Below the pieces are notes generated by a model. The model ran no database searches. It was given only the letters and a program-made list of their open reading frames with translations, and was not told the origin of the DNA. 64,000 bases of DNA from an uncultured Alphaproteobacteria bacterium (lineage in GTDB: Bacteria > Pseudomonadota > Alphaproteobacteria > Rs-D84 > CACZYB01). A program made the position numbers and the translations under genes. Below, in pieces: positions 2,436-59,897 of the stretch (positions are counted from its first letter, which is position 1; the number at the start of each line of letters is the position of its first letter). The stretch covers positions 32,042-96,041 of the forward strand of contig CALXYK010000014.1 in NCBI GenBank assembly GCA_944392955.1, read 5' to 3'.

Positions 2436-4826
2436 TTATTTATCTCGTAATTTTCCACCAAGTTTAACTACTTTATCAATAGCCGACTTAAATATTACAT
2501 TTATTTCATCATCAGTTAAGGTCTTATCTTTTTGTTCTATTGTAATTCTAATTGCCACTGATTTAGTTCCTTTTGGTAAATTATCCCCCTTATAAATATC
2601 AAAGATAATAGCATCACTTATATACTCTTTGTTTGCATTTTTTACTTCGGAAAGGATAGTTCCACCTAAAACATTTTCATCTATGATTACCGAAAAATCC
2701 CTATAAACAGGAAGTAAATCCGATATTATAAGCCTTTTTTTAGATGTTCCTTTTGATTTTAAATCTGGCATAAAATCCAAGTTAACTTCAAAAGCAACAA
2801 CATTTGTATTTTTGATACCAAATTTTTTAAGTGTAAGTGGGTGAATTTCACCGAAATATCCTATTGTCTTATTCGCAAATATAATAGATGCACTTTTGTA
2901 TGGATTTAGCCAATTTGGAAGATTAGTAGTTTCCAATTTTATACTATTTAAGCTTACACCAAAAACCTTTAAAATAGAAATTACATCATCTTTCACATCG
3001 TATACATCAGCGGTTCTTGGAGCACCTTGCCAATTTTTTAACTGAATTTCACCTTGTCTTACACCTGCAACACTGATATTTTGTTCCATAGGTTTTGCAC
3101 CATAAAATGTTGGACCTATTTCAAATAAATTTGATGTTGTTATGCAGCGTGATAAATTTGATTTTATTCCATCTAAAAGATTTGGAATTATACTTTTCCT
3201 CATGACATCTAAATCTGATGCAATAGGATTTGTTATTTTGATACTAGGTGTTGTTGTATCCAATTCCTTTTTAGAACTCATAAATGACCAGGTATAAACT
3301 TCGGTTAATCCTTTATAAGCAAGAATCCTTGGTAAAATAGTTTTGTGTATAATCTTTGTATCAACAACAAGATTAAAACTATCTGGCCTTACCGAAACAG
3401 ATGGAAGTTTATCAAAACCATAAACTCTGACTAATTCTTCTGTTATATCATCTTTGCCCTCTATATCTTCTCTATAAGATGGTGGAGTTATGAAAAGTTT
3501 ATCTTTATCTTCGGAAACTTCACAACCAAGATTTGTTAAAATTTTTACCATTTCTTGTTTAGGAATATCAAAACCAATTCTTTTTTCAAAATAGGAAACT
3601 GGGAATTCAATAGTGTGAGGTTGATACTGACATTTCCCTGTTTTACAAATTCTTGATGGACTTCCACCACAAATATCTAAGATTAAATTAGTTGCATATT
3701 CCATTCCCCAGATAGTGCAACATTGATCTATACCTCGTTCAAAACGGAATTTAGAATCAGATTCAATCTTTAAACGTTTCGCTGTTTTCCTTATTTTTAC
3801 TGGATTAAAATATGCACTTTCTAAAAGAACATTTTTTGTTTTTTTAGAACAAGAAGAATTTAATCCTCCCATAACACCAGCAAGACTTTGGATACCATTA
3901 TCATCTTTGATAACTATATCACCTTCGTTTAGGATATAGGTATTACCATCCAATGCCGTAAAGTTTTCCCCACCTTTTGCATAATCTATAACCAACTTAC
4001 CTTTTATTTTATCGGCATCAAATACATGCAATGGACGATTTATATTATGCAAACAGAAATTTGTTATATCAACTAATGCTGAAATACTATTCATATTAGA
4101 AGATTTCAAATATTCAACAAGCCAGCGAGGAGAATCTTTGTTCTCTACACCTTTGATATATCTTGTATTAAATTCCTTTGCATCTTCTGTTGCTTTGTTT
4201 TCAACAATAATAGGGCTATCATAATCTGATTTAATTTCTTGAATTTGTGGTGGAATAAATTCACCAAAACCACCAGCGGATAAATCCCTTGCAATACCTA
4301 TAACTCCAAGATAATCAGGGCGATTTGGAAGAACATTTCCTTCGTAAATAACATCTAGGTTATATACTTTCTCTAAGGCTGAAATTGCATCAGTTCCGGC
4401 TGTTATCTCATTTGGTAATTCTATTATCCCATCATGATCTTCACCTATATTTAATTCGTATGCAGAACACATCATACCATTGGATTCATAACCTCTGACC
4501 ATTGTTTTTTTCAATTTCATGCCATTAACAGGAATAATATTACCATTCCTTGCCAATATACCTTTTAATCCCTTTTTAACATTAGGTGCGCCACAAACTA
4601 CATCTAAAATTTCTGTACCGGTATTAACTTTTAATAAATGTAAGTGATCGCTGTCAGGATGGTCTTTACACTCTATTACCTCCCCAACTATAAAATCGGA
4701 TAAAGGAGAACAAATATCTTCTACATCTTCTATTTCAAGTCCAAGCATTGTCAAAGCATTGGCTATCTCATTAGCATTTAAATTTGTTTTTAAGTATTTT
4801 TTTAACTGATTATATGTGAAACGCAT
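2436..4826 (-). CDS. pheT: Phenylalanine--tRNA ligase beta subunit
   Basis: 796 aa. N-terminal OB tRNA-binding domain ('VGEVIECKDHPDSDHLHLLKV'). Lies immediately downstream of pheS. Confidence 0.95.
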   Translation of the reverse strand: MRFTYNQLKKYLKTNLNANEIANALTMLGLEIEDVEDICSPLSDFIVGEVIECKDHPDSDHLHLLKVNTGTEILDVVCGAPNVKKGLKGILARNGNIIPVNGMKLKKTMVRGYESNGMMCSAYELNIGEDHDGIIELPNEITAGTDAISALEKVYNLDVIYEGNVLPNRPDYLGVIGIARDLSAGGFGEFIPPQIQEIKSDYDSPIIVENKATEDAKEFNTRYIKGVENKDSPRWLVEYLKSSNMNSISALVDITNFCLHNINRPLHVFDADKIKGKLVIDYAKGGENFTALDGNTYILNEGDIVIKDDNGIQSLAGVMGGLNSSCSKKTKNVLLESAYFNPVKIRKTAKRLKIESDSKFRFERGIDQCCTIWGMEYATNLILDICGGSPSRICKTGKCQYQPHTIEFPVSYFEKRIGFDIPKQEMVKILTNLGCEVSEDKDKLFITPPSYREDIEGKDDITEELVRVYGFDKLPSVSVRPDSFNLVVDTKIIHKTILPRILAYKGLTEVYTWSFMSSKKELDTTTPSIKITNPIASDLDVMRKSIIPNLLDGIKSNLSRCITTSNLFEIGPTFYGAKPMEQNISVAGVRQGEIQLKNWQGAPRTADVYDVKDDVISILKVFGVSLNSIKLETTNLPNWLNPYKSASIIFANKTIGYFGEIHPLTLKKFGIKNTNVVAFEVNLDFMPDLKSKGTSKKRLIISDLLPVYRDFSVIIDENVLGGTILSEVKNANKEYISDAIIFDIYKGDNLPKGTKSVAIRITIEQKDKTLTDDEINVIFKSAIDKVVKLGGKLRDK

Positions 4827-21772: not shown

Positions 21773-21839
21773 TTAGGGATAAAATACAAAAGAAATCTTT
21801 GACTTGATTTTTTATATGTTTTTTATTATTATTTGTTCT

Positions 21840-21925
21840 GAGGTTTGGCGGACGATTATATTATTTTAACAGGTCAGGTCCGGAAGGAAGCAGCCAGAAA
21901 TAATAGGTCGGGTCGTCAAAACCTC
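21840..21925 (+). ncRNA. ffs: Signal recognition particle RNA (small 4.5S type)
   Basis: Contains CAGGTCAGGTCCGGAAGGAAGCAGCC, identical to the conserved domain IV of E. coli 4.5S RNA. Closing helix GAGGTTTG/CAAAACCTC. A TTGACT -35-like element lies upstream. Confidence 0.9.
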
Positions 21926-21926
21926 G

Positions 21927-22136
21927 TTATTTTAAATCTATATCAATTATTGACATATTAAAATCGTATGAAATTTCGCCTTCATCTTCGTCCTTGTATA
22001 AGGTTCCTATGAACTCTGAACCTATATATACTTCGGCCATATCTTCATCCGATTTGCTTAACTTTAAATTTATACTGTCGTTTTTAAATTTGTTTTTTAA
22101 GTAGTTAGTTACTTTTTCTATTTCTTGCAAAGTCAT
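21927..22136 (-). CDS. DUF3126-like small protein
   Basis: 'MTLQEIEKVTNYLKNKF...AEVYIGSEFIGTLYKDEDEGEISYDFNMSIIDIDL' matches my memory of the alphaproteobacterial DUF3126 pattern. GGGAG lies 8 nt upstream of this Met. The longer track start (22163) sits at or upstream of a TATAAT -10. Confidence 0.65.
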   Translation of the reverse strand: MTLQEIEKVTNYLKNKFKNDSINLKLSKSDEDMAEVYIGSEFIGTLYKDEDEGEISYDFNMSIIDIDLK

Positions 22137-30580: not shown

Positions 30581-30583
30581 TTT

Positions 30584-31675
30584 ATGAAAAAAAATAATAG
30601 AATTGTTATAGGGGCTGGCGGAACTGGCGGACATTTGTTTCCTGCTTCGGCTATAAAATACTCTCTTGAAAAACTAGGTTATAAAGTTTTCCTTATTACA
30701 GATAAAAGAGGTAAAAGATTTGCTGATAAATTTGAAAATATATCTGTTATAATAGGTGGTGGCATGAGTGGTGAGAGTTTTTTTTATCGCCTTAGAAGCC
30801 TTATGAAACTATCTATTGGATTTATGCAAACTTTTTTTTATATGCTTAAAATTCGTCCTGTCGCAGTAATAGGTATGGGAGGATATATTTCTGTGCCTGT
30901 TGTGTTATGGGGAAAACTATTTGCAAAAAAAACTTTTATTCATAATGCAGATTCAATATTGGGAAATGCAAATATGTTATTGGCAAAGTTTGCTGATGTA
31001 ACCATGGTTTCTTTTGAAAATACAAAAAAAATACCTGCAAAAGCAAATGTCGTATTTACAGGCTTACCACTTAGAGAAGATGTAAAAAAAATTGCTGATA
31101 CCCCTTATCCATCAATAAAAAAAACGAATCAGATTGTTATTACTATTATGGGGGGCTCACAGGGGGCAGAAATCTTTGGAAATGTTATTTCAAAGGCAAT
31201 TGCAATGTTTGAACCAAATCAAAGACAACATTTTTTCATATATCAACAAGTAGTAGAAAAAGATATGACTAATATAAAAAAGTTTTATGATGAAATTGGT
31301 GTGAAATCTGAAATAAAGCCTTTTTTCAAAAATCCTGCAGAATTACTTGCAAAATGTAATATATTTATTGGTAGATCCGGGGCATCTACCGTACTTGAAG
31401 TAGGAAGTGTTGGAAGACCCGCTATATTTATTCCTATAATGCATAAGGATAGGCAACAATTTATAAATGCTGAACAAATTACATCTGTTGGTGGTGGAGA
31501 AATTTTGCCTCAGCCTCAGTTTTCCGCAAAAAATTTGTATAAAATCTTAAAAAAGTTTGTATCTGATGCGAATTTACTTGAAAATATGGCAAAAAAAGCT
31601 AAAATTTTCTCCGTTAAAAATGATGCTAGCGAAAAAATAGCAATTTTGATTGATAATATACTTAATAAAAAATAA
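30584..31675 (+). CDS. murG: UDP-GlcNAc--lipid I N-acetylglucosamine transferase
   Basis: 363 aa with 'GAGGTGGHLFPA' and 'GRSGASTVLE'. Confidence 0.9.
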   Translation: MKKNNRIVIGAGGTGGHLFPASAIKYSLEKLGYKVFLITDKRGKRFADKFENISVIIGGGMSGESFFYRLRSLMKLSIGFMQTFFYMLKIRPVAVIGMGGYISVPVVLWGKLFAKKTFIHNADSILGNANMLLAKFADVTMVSFENTKKIPAKANVVFTGLPLREDVKKIADTPYPSIKKTNQIVITIMGGSQGAEIFGNVISKAIAMFEPNQRQHFFIYQQVVEKDMTNIKKFYDEIGVKSEIKPFFKNPAELLAKCNIFIGRSGASTVLEVGSVGRPAIFIPIMHKDRQQFINAEQITSVGGGEILPQPQFSAKNLYKILKKFVSDANLLENMAKKAKIFSVKNDASEKIAILIDNILNKK

Positions 31676-40311: not shown

Positions 40312-40339
40312 TTGCTTATGTTTTTTTTTTTGCTAGAAT
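40312..40339 (+). promoter_or_regulatory. Sigma70-type promoter for dnaX with a T11 tract in the spacer
   Basis: TTGCTT (40312-40317), 16-nt spacer containing T11 (40321-40331), TAGAAT (40334-40339). Confidence 0.45.
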
Positions 40340-40369: not shown

Positions 40370-41566
40370 ATGACTGATAATCAAAAGACATATAAGGTTT
40401 TAGCAAGAAAATATAGACCTAATACTTTGGAAGAGTTGGTGGGGCAGGATGTCCTTGTCAATACTATTGCAAATGCCATTAAAACTAATAGGCTGGCTCA
40501 TGCCTATGTGTTTACTGGTATCAGAGGTGTGGGAAAAACATCAACTGCGCGAATTTTTGCAAAATCTTTAAATTGTATTGGTCCTGATGGGAAGGCAACT
40601 GAACCTCAGATTAAACCTTGTGGTGTTTGTGAACATTGCCGTGCAATTGCAGAAGATAGGGATATTGATGTTATAGAAATGGATGCGGCAAGCAGGACTG
40701 GTGTTGATGATATTCGTGAAATAATTGATTCCGTTCAATATAAACCTGCTTCGGCTAGATATAAAGTATATATAATAGACGAAGTTCACATGTTATCAAA
40801 AAGTGCCTTCAATGCCCTTTTGAAAACATTAGAAGAACCTCCTGCTTATGTAAAATTTATATTTGCAACTACTGAAATACGAAAGGTTCCTGCGACTGTT
40901 TTATCTAGATGTCAACGTTTTGATTTACCTCGTGTGGATATGGATGTGCTTTGTAATCATTTTAAACATATTTGCGAAATGGAAAATGTGAATATAGACG
41001 AAGCCTCTATACAACTTATTGCGAAAATGGCTGATGGATCGGTCCGTGATGGTTTAAGTTTTTTGGATCAAGTAATATCTAATTGTGAAGGGGATATTTC
41101 TGTTGAGAAAGTATCAAAAATTTTGGGACTTGCTTCAAAAAATGTTATTTTTGATTTGTATGATTATATAATGGGTGCAAAAATTTCTGATGCAATAAAT
41201 TTAGTAAATGAACAATATAATATGGGGGTAGATCCTGTTTTAATATTAACTGATTTATTGGAAATTACTCATTTTATTACTAGGGTTAAGATTTCACCTA
41301 ATTCTTTGACTACTTTGCCTTTAATACCAAAGGAACAAGAAAGAATTAAAGATTTAGCCAATAAACTTTCTATTTCTGTATTGGCAAGAGTGTGGCAAAT
41401 GCTTTTGAAAGGACTTGATGAAATAAAGAAGGTGCCTAACCTACTTTCTGCAATAGAAATGATTTTAATAAGAATCTCTTATATAGGAATGATGCCTGGG
41501 CCTGCCGAAATACTTGAAAAAATAGAAAATCAGAATTCTTCTGAACTTCAAAAAAAAAATAGCTAA
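40370..41566 (+). CDS. dnaX: DNA polymerase III gamma-like subunit (DnaX domains I-III), 0-frame product
   Basis: 398 aa with 'GIRGVGKTSTARIFAKSLNC', Zn module 'CGVCEHCRAI', 'IDEVHMLS' and 'LSRCQRF'. Ends 2 codons after an A10 run. Confidence 0.9.
   Translation: MTDNQKTYKVLARKYRPNTLEELVGQDVLVNTIANAIKTNRLAHAYVFTGIRGVGKTSTARIFAKSLNCIGPDGKATEPQIKPCGVCEHCRAIAEDRDIDVIEMDAASRTGVDDIREIIDSVQYKPASARYKVYIIDEVHMLSKSAFNALLKTLEEPPAYVKFIFATTEIRKVPATVLSRCQRFDLPRVDMDVLCNHFKHICEMENVNIDEASIQLIAKMADGSVRDGLSFLDQVISNCEGDISVEKVSKILGLASKNVIFDLYDYIMGAKISDAINLVNEQYNMGVDPVLILTDLLEITHFITRVKISPNSLTTLPLIPKEQERIKDLANKLSISVLARVWQMLLKGLDEIKKVPNLLSAIEMILIRISYIGMMPGPAEILEKIENQNSSELQKKNS
41550..41559 (+). promoter_or_regulatory. 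A10 homopolymer: candidate slippage/recoding site, or a homopolymer sequencing error
   Basis: The 0 frame stops at 41564. The -1 frame stops at 41560 (TAG). The +1 frame is open from 41526 into ORF 41586..41975. Confidence 0.5.
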
Positions 41567-41585
41567 TCATTTTGAAACTGAATCT

Positions 41586-41975
41586 ATGTTTGAAGAACTT
41601 GCAAAAGTTGCAGATAGTGTTTCTACTATGACAATAGAATCTTTGGTAGACACATTAAAAGAAAAAAAGTCTTTTTTACTATCTCGTGATGTGGAAAGGT
41701 ATGTTCGTTTTGTAGGTTTTGATAAAGGGGTTTTATCCATCAATTTAGAGGAACTTCATCCCAAAGAATTGATTAAAAACCTTAATGATTTTTTTATTCA
41801 AAGCAAATTCAATATAAAGGTCATTCGTTCTTCGGAAAAAGGTGATGATACTTTGGAACAAAAGAAAAAAGCTTTATTCCAACAACAACTGATGGAAGTG
41901 TCCCAGAATCCTATATTAAAGGAAATTTTGGAATGTTTCAGAAACTCTGTTGTTGAAAATATTGAAGATTTATAG
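41586..41975 (+). CDS. dnaX: DnaX C-terminal (tau-specific) domain ORF in the +1 frame relative to dnaX; probably expressed as a fusion
   Basis: 129 aa. The pattern 'FEELAKV...VRFVGFDKGVLSINL...IKVIRS...NPILKEILECFRNSVVENIEDL' resembles the conserved C-terminus of alphaproteobacterial DnaX (from memory). Sits between dnaX and ybaB. Confidence 0.55.
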   Translation: MFEELAKVADSVSTMTIESLVDTLKEKKSFLLSRDVERYVRFVGFDKGVLSINLEELHPKELIKNLNDFFIQSKFNIKVIRSSEKGDDTLEQKKKALFQQQLMEVSQNPILKEILECFRNSVVENIEDL

Positions 41976-42012
41976 TATAATTTCAAAATCAATAACTTAA
42001 AAAGGAGATATT

Positions 42013-42336
42013 ATGGTAAATATAAATGAATTGGTTGCTCAGGCTCAGGCTATGCAAAATAAAGTTAAAATTGCTCAGGCAGAACTTGCAAAACAAGAAG
42101 TTGTAGGTGAAGCAGGAAATGGTTTAGTTAAAATGACTATAACTTGCACAAAAGAAACAAGAAAATGTGAAATAGATCCTTCTTTGTTAAAGGCAGAAGA
42201 AAAGGAAAATTTAGAAGATTTAATAGTGGCAGCAATGAATAATGCAAAGGAAATGGCTGATGAAATAGCAACTGCTACTATGGAAGAAGCAACTTCTGGA
42301 CTTCAACTTCCAGAAGGGGTTAATTTACCTATGTAA
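42013..42336 (+). CDS. ybaB: Nucleoid-associated protein YbaB/EbfC
   Basis: 107 aa with 'AQAMQNKVKIAQAELAKQEVVGEAGNGLVKMTI'. Conserved position after dnaX. No recR follows. Confidence 0.9.
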   Translation: MVNINELVAQAQAMQNKVKIAQAELAKQEVVGEAGNGLVKMTITCTKETRKCEIDPSLLKAEEKENLEDLIVAAMNNAKEMADEIATATMEEATSGLQLPEGVNLPM

Positions 42337-46072: not shown

Positions 46073-46146
46073 GGTCGGTTGGCAGAGAGGCTATGCAGAG
46101 GACTGCAAATCCTTGGACACTGGTTCGAATCCGGTACCGACCTCCA
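46073..46146 (+). tRNA. tRNA-Cys (anticodon GCA)
   Basis: 74 nt. Acceptor stem GGTCGGT/ACCGACC, anticodon loop CTGCAAA, T-loop TTCGAAT, discriminator U73 (the Cys identity element) and an encoded CCA. Confidence 0.92.
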
Positions 46147-59849: not shown

Positions 59850-59897
59850 TAACATATATTTTTTATTTTTGCAACTTTTTTTTTAAATAATATCATT

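Follow-up and report, generated by a model that had tools for sequence, protein, structure and literature searches.

A conserved poly-A run at the gamma/tau boundary of dnaX in an alphaproteobacterial clade, a probable site of programmed transcriptional slippage

We analysed the dnaX gene of an uncultured alphaproteobacterium in a 64,000-nt stretch of its DNA (contig CALXYK010000014.1, positions 32,042 to 96,041 of the forward strand; hereafter the window), where a run of ten A separates the gamma-like part of the gene from a tau-type C-terminal domain that continues in the +1 frame. Our preferred reading, to which we give a probability of roughly two in three, is that both parts belong to one recoded gene, from which two clamp-loader subunits, gamma and tau, would be made by programmed transcriptional slippage on the A10 run. 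Recoding had been raised by an original prediction made on the same DNA, and it is supported here by conservation of the run, by closed alternative frames, by an open C-terminal frame and by purifying selection on the domain that follows the run. We infer slippage itself, its transcriptional level and the ratio of the products from the sequence of this locus and of its relatives.

The dnaX frame ends at an A10 run and a C-terminal domain continues in the +1 frame

The features of the locus are collected in Table 1. The 3' end of dnaX reads CAA AAA AAA AAT AGC TAA, and all coordinates that the original prediction had assigned to the interrupted gene (40370..41566) and to its A10 (41550..41559) were reproduced in the sequence. 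So were the TAG at 41560, placed in the -1 frame directly after the run, and the +1 frame, which is open from 41526, across the run, to a stop at 41973..41975 and leads into a 129-aa open reading frame (ORF; 41586..41975) whose ATG at 41586 lies 20 nt past the dnaX stop. Standard decoding gives the 398-aa gamma-like protein foreseen at the time, and Pfam finds its domains I-III complete (DNA_pol3_delta2, 141 bits; DNAX_ATPase_lid, 53.5 bits; DNA_pol3_gamma3, 142 bits, the last covering profile positions 1-142 of 143). When A10 was swapped in silico for A9, the two parts became one ORF of 534 aa, and with A12 one of 535 aa, in good agreement with the tau of about 530 aa that had been proposed for an mRNA with one A fewer or two more. 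With A8, A11 or A13 at the run, only products of 396-399 aa resulted.

The 129-aa ORF had been likened to the C-terminal domain of alphaproteobacterial DnaX. Indeed, it matches PF12362 at 53.5 bits, well over the curated cut-off of 30.2, and along profile positions 3-113 of 114. This family (also DUF3646) is the alphaproteobacterial DnaX C-terminal domain and carries the Pfam title 'DNA polymerase III gamma and tau subunits C terminal'. From KKK on, the +1 frame is collinear with the C-terminal third of three full-length DnaX proteins (P0029, P0038 and P0039), with 36-47% of residues identical. For the core of the domain, an AlphaFold2 model had a mean predicted local distance difference test score (pLDDT) of 92.3, and its top fold match among 350,542 PDB chains was 2AYA, the alpha-binding C-terminal domain of E. 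coli tau. This match is weak (E 0.05, probability 0.87, template modelling score 0.43-0.46), and a sequence-profile search of the PDB with the C-terminal domain found nothing relevant. Together, the Pfam assignment and the fold match of the model support a tau-type function for the domain, which probably binds the polymerase alpha subunit. Between clade lineages, the ratio of nonsynonymous to synonymous substitution rates (dN/dS) is 0.10-0.34 for the C-terminal domain versus 0.08-0.31 for the N-terminal part of the protein, and the C-terminal domain is under purifying selection.

The A10 run recurs across assemblies and stands out in the window

Homopolymers are error-prone on some sequencing platforms, and the original prediction had considered an error or a recent indel to be as plausible as recoding. 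The true gene would then be uninterrupted and the split a fault of sequencing or assembly, or else a recent homopolymer indel would have inactivated the gene and left a fresh pseudogene. We found an identical 398-aa protein encoded by eight contigs in ENA and NCBI (GCA_949293495.1), which come from different assemblers and different samples, and the junction holds exactly ten A in all seven assemblies whose DNA was compared. The split is furthermore kept across lineages down to about 52-84% DnaX identity, the C-terminal domain shows the dN/dS given above, and no gene in the window is broken by any other long run. With seven identical A10 assemblies and a conserved layout, an error no longer stands on an equal footing with recoding; the comparative sequence data refute it, and we assign it a negligible probability.

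Runs of A or T with lengths of 4, 5, 6, 7 and 8 occur 1177, 465, 216, 87 and 39 times in the window, a factor of 0.40-0.47 per extra base, and lengths of 9, 10 and 11 are represented by one run each, so that 3 runs of at least nine are observed versus about 30 expected. A drop-off at nine has been described as the mark of selection against runs prone to slippage (Baranov et al., 2005; PMC1088944), and suggests genome-wide selection against slippery runs in this organism of 31% GC. As the cut-off at 8 is abrupt, the assembly evidently handles homopolymers well. The A10 of dnaX is the sole A/T run of at least nine in the coding sequence of the window, the remaining two being intergenic: the genome shuns slippery runs in its genes yet retains this one. 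Of the intergenic runs, a T9 (59876..59884) lies outside any long ORF. The ceiling at 8 can also be seen within a single murG-like gene (30581..31675; glycosyltransferase family 28, both domains), which has seven A8/T8 runs and none longer.

The run is conserved and the frame behind it varies

A comparison of the locus in related genomes, already envisaged in the original prediction, covered the window and 13 further clade loci, of 29-64% GC and with DnaX identity as low as about 52%. All 13 have a run of A9-A11 at the homologous junction. The +1 relation described for the window holds there and in seven related loci, and it fell as a conserved feature, for sister lineages have the domain at -1 or in frame (Table 1). 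One long frame continues past the run in every lineage, over 124-141 codons where the gene is split and 133-138 codons where it is in frame, and both non-tau frames close within 4-10 codons of the run in 13 of the 14 clade loci, the exception being L102. The run occupies codon phase 2 or 3, depending on the locus, and a TAG or TAA directly after it is kept in all lineages that have A10 in phase 2. In the GC-rich relatives, AAG makes up 57-76% of the other Lys codons of dnaX, yet the junction run is all A, and their loci contain no other A run longer than 7; the all-A tract is therefore maintained by selection on the nucleotide sequence. Between the lineages, synonymous sites are nearly saturated (proportion of synonymous differences 0.47-0.71). 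The conserved feature is the slippery run, not the frame relation.

With the hypothetical fusion protein as query we obtained about 40 DnaX clusters with lengths of 387-400 aa and identities of 62-100%. Full-length forms (502-527 aa) were more distant, the nearest having only 52-56% identity. In a set of 49 short forms of 387-400 aa (cluster representatives plus a few members), the tail was KKN... in 45 cases, KKK in three and KKKSDRQE in one. A genome scan with the 398-aa protein yielded, among the matches listed, only distant full-length relatives of at most 59% identity, a background set that includes the loci L061 and L066 described below, and a metagenome scan with an alignment of the C-terminal domain yielded two loci.

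Both A10 and A11 are found among close relatives. Locus L100 has A11 amid A10 relatives, and P0122, a protein of 397 aa encoded on a 27.9-kb ENA contig and sharing a 90% cluster with the DnaX of the window, ends in ...ELQKKK, which implies, at the level of protein sequence, that the population of the window, or one very close to it, includes an A11 allele. Such variation would suit phase variation at the DNA level, where replication slippage toggles the run between A9 and A12, and either in-frame cells supply tau or the population switches. However, the best DnaX matches and the 45 matches to the C-terminal ORF included no in-frame fused allele at 60% identity or above, although a single step would turn an observed allele into A9 or A12. 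Both observed alleles are out of frame. Besides, the eight contigs with the identical protein must all have A10, as was confirmed at the DNA level for seven, and an essential replisome subunit cannot depend on a minority genotype. We find phase variation hardly credible.

The C-terminal frame behaves as a continuation of dnaX

The 129-aa ORF, used as a query, retrieved 45 ORFs with identities of 62-100% and lengths of 112-157 aa. All 45 stand alone, with no fused gene among them. The longer gene calls begin upstream of the run in the +1 frame (e.g. ...FKKKIASH...), the shorter ones at assorted internal methionines. For P0139 and P0158, from NCBI records of metagenome-assembled genomes (MAGs), the ORFs upstream are labelled 'DNA polymerase III subunit gamma/tau' and the C-terminal ones 'hypothetical protein'. 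The ORF is thus treated as a separate gene in public annotation, and this, like the ATG 20 nt after the dnaX stop in the window, would agree with a true gene fission into a gamma-only DnaX and a small C-terminal-domain protein with its own start, which would act in trans or in a new role. The lack of a Shine-Dalgarno sequence before the second ORF says little here, given that dnaX itself has no obvious one.

Several observations speak against fission. The C-terminal ORF has no conserved independent start codon: no ATG, GTG or TTG occurs within 60 codons of the run in L092, and in L094, L103 and L097 the first start codon comes 37-42 codons past the run, inside the conserved domain. The C-terminal frame is open back over the run in all lineages, and the linker varies in length from lineage to lineage with that frame never broken, which is how coding sequence would be expected to behave. 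Fission would leave unexplained why A9-A11 is conserved at the nucleotide level in genomes of 53-64% GC, and why close stops occur in exactly both other frames. From what is established for the E. coli holoenzyme, tau works only if its polymerase-binding domain stays attached to the clamp loader. We judge fission to be very improbable.

A DnaX of 730 aa from an NCBI contig (P0034) contains an exact internal duplication of about 130 residues, with VPVTVLSRCQRFDL...AAHAVTR present twice. The probable cause is a fault of assembly or a recent tandem duplication.

A slippage model and its predicted products

Under programmed transcriptional slippage, RNA polymerase on the T10 template would realign the all-rA:dT hybrid and release mRNAs that differ in their number of A. 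The templated A10 mRNA would be translated into the 398-aa gamma-like protein (...QKKNS) and an A13 mRNA into one of 399 aa (...QKKKNS). Gamma-like proteins of 397 aa (...QKKK) and 396 aa (...QKK) are expected from A11 and A8 mRNAs, respectively, both ended by the TAG right after the run. An A9 or A12 mRNA would put the +1 frame in register, and would give a tau of 534 or 535 aa with the C-terminal, probably alpha-binding, domain and with the predicted junction peptides ...NSSELQKKIANHFETESMFEELAK and ...QKKKIANHFETES.... If slippage is insertion-biased as in Thermus, tau would be the minority product.

Runs of nine A or T are known to slip efficiently in bacteria (PMC5009743), and opposite shift directions among orthologues have been used as a criterion for transcriptional realignment (Antonov et al., 2013; PMC3711429). 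In our clade, +1, -1 and 0 are all found on the homologous run.

The same products might come from ribosomes. A faithful A10 mRNA would in that case be read by ribosomes carrying tRNA-Lys that shift by +1 or -2, or slide, on AAA AAA AAA, with -1 shifts in the A11 and A9 lineages. Runs of A are classic shifty sites for tRNA-Lys, E. coli dnaX uses A_AAA_AAG, and according to a review both levels may act at one site (PMC5009743). A +1 shift on the A10 mRNA would produce the same tau sequence as an A9 mRNA, and in L093 a strong 8-bp hairpin lies 5 nt downstream of the run. On the other hand, this is the only one of 16 loci with 3' structure; the near-identical L094 has no such hairpin by the criterion used, and no downstream hairpin is conserved among the loci. 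In the window, GGAG, GAGG and AGGA are absent from the 22 nt upstream of the run, and the zero-frame A site has no slow or stop codon, unlike that of prfB. We favour transcription over translation because the required direction differs between close relatives (+1 for A10 in L091, -1 for A11 in L100), because the codon phase of the run varies whereas a ribosomal site is phase-specific, and because the conserved item is a run of at least nine, the threshold for polymerase slippage, and not a phased heptamer. Ribosomal recoding as the explanation of the split gene is unlikely in our view; slipping or sliding of ribosomes on the AAA codons may contribute alongside transcriptional slippage.

A candidate hairpin directly upstream of the run

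As a strict criterion for a hairpin we used a perfect stem of at least 5 bp, a loop of 3-8 nt and a 3' end 0-2 nt before the run. Such hairpins, with four different stems, precede the run in 7 of the 14 clade loci, versus 1.4-4.3% of control positions in the same loci. The stems observed are 5-7 bp long and end 1-2 nt before the run (Table 1), and the strongest hairpins are those of L095 and L096. By this positional definition the window itself has none, and shows an imperfect version only. The comparison is suggestive of a role of the upstream hairpin in stimulating slippage, for which it is a candidate; its role in the window is uncertain.

A more far-reaching and novel variant of slippage, which we put forward tentatively and consider unlikely, is that the run and the terminator-like hairpin upstream of it make up an evolvable dial for clamp-loader composition. 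Slippage would feed all three frames, and changes of a single base in the run (A9, A10, A11) would reset the tau:gamma ratio without loss of either subunit. A dial would explain the three frame states in one clade, and the commonest of these, A10 with the domain at +1, would keep tau a small minority deliberately. If true, dnaX would be the first housekeeping gene of a cell to have slippage programmed by a nascent-RNA hairpin, and frame polarity as the tuned variable.

Points that weigh against slippage

A number of findings count against our preferred reading, or at least against parts of it. The hairpin in the window is weak (RNAfold -4.9 kcal/mol), and 9.3% of control windows from the same gene fold at least as well. 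For most loci, the folding energy of the 30 nt upstream of the run was not significant when compared with windows from the same gene, because GC-rich coding sequence folds everywhere. Nor was the hairpin enrichment significant under relaxed criteria, so that only the strict positional test discriminates, and the AACTTC/GAAGTT stem family, present in four loci, may be common to three of them through descent and not through independent selection. The equation of the C-terminal domain with domain V of E. coli tau leans on the weak fold match of a model (E 0.05).

With respect to mechanism, A10 with the domain at +1 needs a deletion of 1 nt or an insertion of 2 nt, and tau could end up as a small fraction of an essential protein; slippage in Thermus is reported as insertions in diminishing proportion (PMC5009743). 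Moreover, ribosomes too can frameshift or slide on successive AAA codons, and the two levels cannot be told apart from sequence data alone. Lastly, the -1 frame past the run of L102 (1131..1140) is open for 184 codons, unlike that of all other loci.

We considered whether L102 represents a -1 state and rejected this: its actual protein, P0039, is in frame, and the open frame is a spurious one in GC-rich DNA. Transcripts of L102 with A11 or A8 would yield a long out-of-frame tail and no clean gamma, and this tail may be a chance ORF of GC-rich DNA.

Other features of the locus

Downstream of the 129-aa ORF lie ybaB (42013..42336) and then tyrS. Upstream of dnaX, TTGCTT-16-TAGAAT is the probable promoter of the gene, judging by conservation: the hexamers and the 16-nt spacing are kept in relatives, GC-rich ones included, and the spacer itself is T9, A10 or mixed. 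A simple consensus scan did not pick up this putative promoter, whose -35 hexamer has 3/6 matches. In the window, a T11 (40321..40331) lies inside the spacer. We rejected it as a phase-variable promoter spacer because the spacing is always 16 nt and the homopolymer content varies among relatives; it looks like spacer filling.

A sigma-70-like site, TTGAAA-17-TATAAT (11/12), is found at 41953..41981, over the end of the C-terminal ORF and just upstream of ybaB; promoter-like sites near this position are as many as expected from shuffled sequence, and it may mean nothing. At gathering score, Rfam matches in the 64-kb window comprise a bacterial small signal recognition particle RNA (58.5 bits) and one tRNA, at 21837..21931 and 46073..46143, and include no rRNA.

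Table 1. Features of the dnaX junction in the window, and states of the run and candidate hairpins in the clade loci
Feature	Position or locus	Strand	Details
dnaX zero-frame ORF	40370..41566	+	398-aa gamma-like product, domains I-III only, C-terminal ...SSELQKKNS
Slippery run A10 (T10 on template strand)	41550..41559	+	proposed RNA polymerase realignment site
TAG stop in -1 frame, directly after run	41560..41562	+	would end the product of A11/A8 transcripts (...QKKK, stop)
Zero-frame TAA stop	41564..41566	+	two codons past run
+1-frame continuation	41559..41975	+	short linker (IANHFETESMFEELAKVADSVS), then DnaX C-terminal domain
PF12362 (DUF3646) domain	41631..41960	+	probable counterpart of tau domain V
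Probable dnaX promoter	40312..40339	+	TTGCTT (40312..40317), 16-nt spacer, TAGAAT (40334..40339)
Weak potential nascent-RNA hairpin	41520..41549	+	ends directly at run
Inner stem of window hairpin	41530..41535 with 41539..41544	+	TCAGAA with TTCTGA
Outer stem of window hairpin	41525..41527 with 41547..41549	+	GAA with TTC
Candidate hairpin	L095		CCTCGTC, loop CTCG, GACGAGG
Candidate hairpin	L096		TTCCTC, loop GGCT, GAGGAA
Candidate hairpin	L102		CTCGGG, loop CACCGACT, CCCGAG
Candidate hairpin	L093, L094		AACTTC, loop CGGC, GAAGTT
Candidate hairpin	L100		AACTTC, loop TACA, GAAGTT
Candidate hairpin	L091		ACTTC, loop TATT, GAAGT
A10, domain at +1	window, L088, L091, L092		GC 0.29-0.31
A10, domain at +1	L093, L094, L103		GC 0.57-0.59
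A10, domain at +1, run in different codon phase	L097		GC 0.59
A11, domain at -1	L100, L099		GC 0.34 (L100), 0.60 (L099)
A9, domain at -1	L101		GC 0.57
A10 or A11, domain in frame 0 (full-length gene)	L095, L096, L102		GC 0.53-0.58

Runs in other alphaproteobacterial lineages

A split dnaX was also observed in a second, unrelated lineage, the Paracoccaceae MAG LRMED-264 (L061; JBJLFU010000015.1, 37% GC), with A12 at 4316..4327. Its zero frame ends in ...ELEKKKS, with a stop five codons after the run begins, and the -1 frame holds a C-terminal ORF of 130 aa (...NPSVIEIMRVFPGAKI...). A Marinicaulis sp. MAG (L066; JAJFGE010000134.1, 56% GC) has an in-frame A9 at 4164..4172, exactly at the end of domain III. 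One alternative frame of L066 stops one codon past the run, and in the other a stop codon that takes in the first base of the run closes the frame; before the A9 there is a hairpin of 7 bp with one G-T pair (GAGGCCT-TGA-AGGCCTT). This A9 looks like a Thermus-type site. Two further A9 runs were rejected as slip sites. That of Bartonella tamiae (L064) has one alternative frame open for 124 codons, and that of a member of the Pelagibacteraceae (L067) is some 560 nt past the dnaX match, within a 206-codon ORF of another frame that looks like a gene of its own.

Novelty and meaning

Two-ORF recoded dnaX genes with a poly-A junction form a known class, described before in other phyla. The apparent novelties here are the phylum, the type of domain, a +1 layout that requires a deletion of 1 nt or an insertion of 2 nt, the presence of all three frame states on one conserved run within a clade, and the candidate hairpin. 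The poly-A route would now extend to the Alphaproteobacteria, where only proteolysis, in Caulobacter, was known. With tau in the 0, +1 and -1 frames of close lineages, the clade is a natural experiment on the requirement for tau, on the tuning of slippage and on the effect of the hairpin. For recoding specialists it is a clean comparative case, and for genome annotators one of recurrent mis-annotation: records of a truncated gamma/tau protein next to a 'hypothetical protein' should be joined as one recoded gene, and such a split dnaX should not be counted as a pseudogene or an assembly error in the quality control of MAGs.

Comparison with known systems

The closest precedent is a set of 17 two-ORF dnaX genes from 12 genera, all with the second ORF at -1 at the DNA level and nine with A10 (Antonov et al., 2013; NAR 41:6514; PMC3711429). 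They belong to the Chlorobi, Bacteroidetes and Verrucomicrobia, and the genera listed are Chlorobium, Pelodictyon, Prosthecochloris, Flavobacterium, Cytophaga, Capnocytophaga and Coraliomargarita; the authors' prediction for these genes, which carried no recoding annotation in public records, was transcriptional realignment (PMC3711429). As in these genes, the window has two adjacent ORFs with A10 after domain III, a short product in the zero frame and a tau that needs recoding. The original prediction was right that this polarity, inverted relative to the established systems, is unusual, but it is not a novelty, as A10 dnaX genes with tau made by recoding were already described by Antonov et al. 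(2013; PMC3711429). In contrast to that set, the window and seven related loci are at +1, with only L099, L100, L101 and L061 at -1. The -1 relation is an observed property of the 17 published genes and not a mechanistic requirement. The window further differs from them in being alphaproteobacterial, with a domain of PF12362 type, and in belonging to a clade that also holds -1 and in-frame states.

In Thermus thermophilus, dnaX slips on A9: its mRNAs gain one A or more, and each product makes up about 50% (Larsen et al., 2000, as summarised in PMC1088944 and PMC5009743). There, too, the run lies near the end of the gamma-coding part with close stops in the non-tau frames, and standard translation of the mixed mRNAs gives both subunits; L095, L096 and L102 share the in-frame arrangement of Thermus. 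The window is reversed, for Thermus reads tau from the templated zero frame and depends on slippage for gamma. Slippage was shown experimentally in Thermus, whereas here its occurrence is suggested by sequence.

E. coli dnaX likewise gives a gamma truncated just past domain III in addition to tau, from a shift site of Lys codons in an A-rich tract. It has A_AAA_AAG, an upstream Shine-Dalgarno-like element, a 3' stem-loop and tau in the zero frame. Unlike this site, the run studied here has no G and varies in phase, with none of GGAG, GAGG or AGGA in the 22 nt upstream of it in the window and no conserved hairpin downstream.

A frameshift in a poly-A tract of dnaX was reported for Blochmannia in 2010, with full-length tau thought to be restored by slippage (PMC3017870), and endosymbiont genes frameshifted at poly(A) have about 30% full-length transcripts (Tamas et al., 2008, as cited in that paper). 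Blochmannia resembles the window in its AT-rich genome and in having the frameshift of dnaX in a poly-A tract. There, however, the tract is within the tau-specific region of one of many eroding genes and was read as tolerated decay. The site in the window is at the gamma/tau boundary, is the sole long run in coding sequence and is kept in GC-rich genomes of free-living type; it therefore looks selected, not tolerated.

For the hairpin, the point of comparison is the Roseiflexus IS630 element, whose slip motif is immediately preceded on its 5' side by a stem of 6 bp capped by a 4-nt loop (Penno et al., 2015, as described in PMC5009743). This hairpin is the only characterised bacterial stimulator of slippage, and was proposed to melt the upstream end of the RNA:DNA hybrid in the manner of an intrinsic terminator (PMC5009743). 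The hairpin geometry is similar in 7 of our 14 clade loci, 1-2 nt before the run. The motif in Roseiflexus is U5C4/5 with a specific 1-nt deletion, whereas here it is a long A run, and the hairpin of the window is imperfect.

Our full-text literature search on dnaX, Alphaproteobacteria and slippage returned only the work on proteolysis in Caulobacter and two papers on prfB. In Caulobacter crescentus, gamma is made by partial ClpXP proteolysis of full-length tau (Vass and Chien, 2013; bioRxiv 10.1101/2022.11.10.516041), that is post-translationally and without recoding, unlike what we propose for the window. As an alphaproteobacterium that obtains tau and gamma from one dnaX, it nevertheless supports a general need for both subunits; the existence of three or more unrelated routes by which bacteria derive the two from dnaX implies that the ratio matters.

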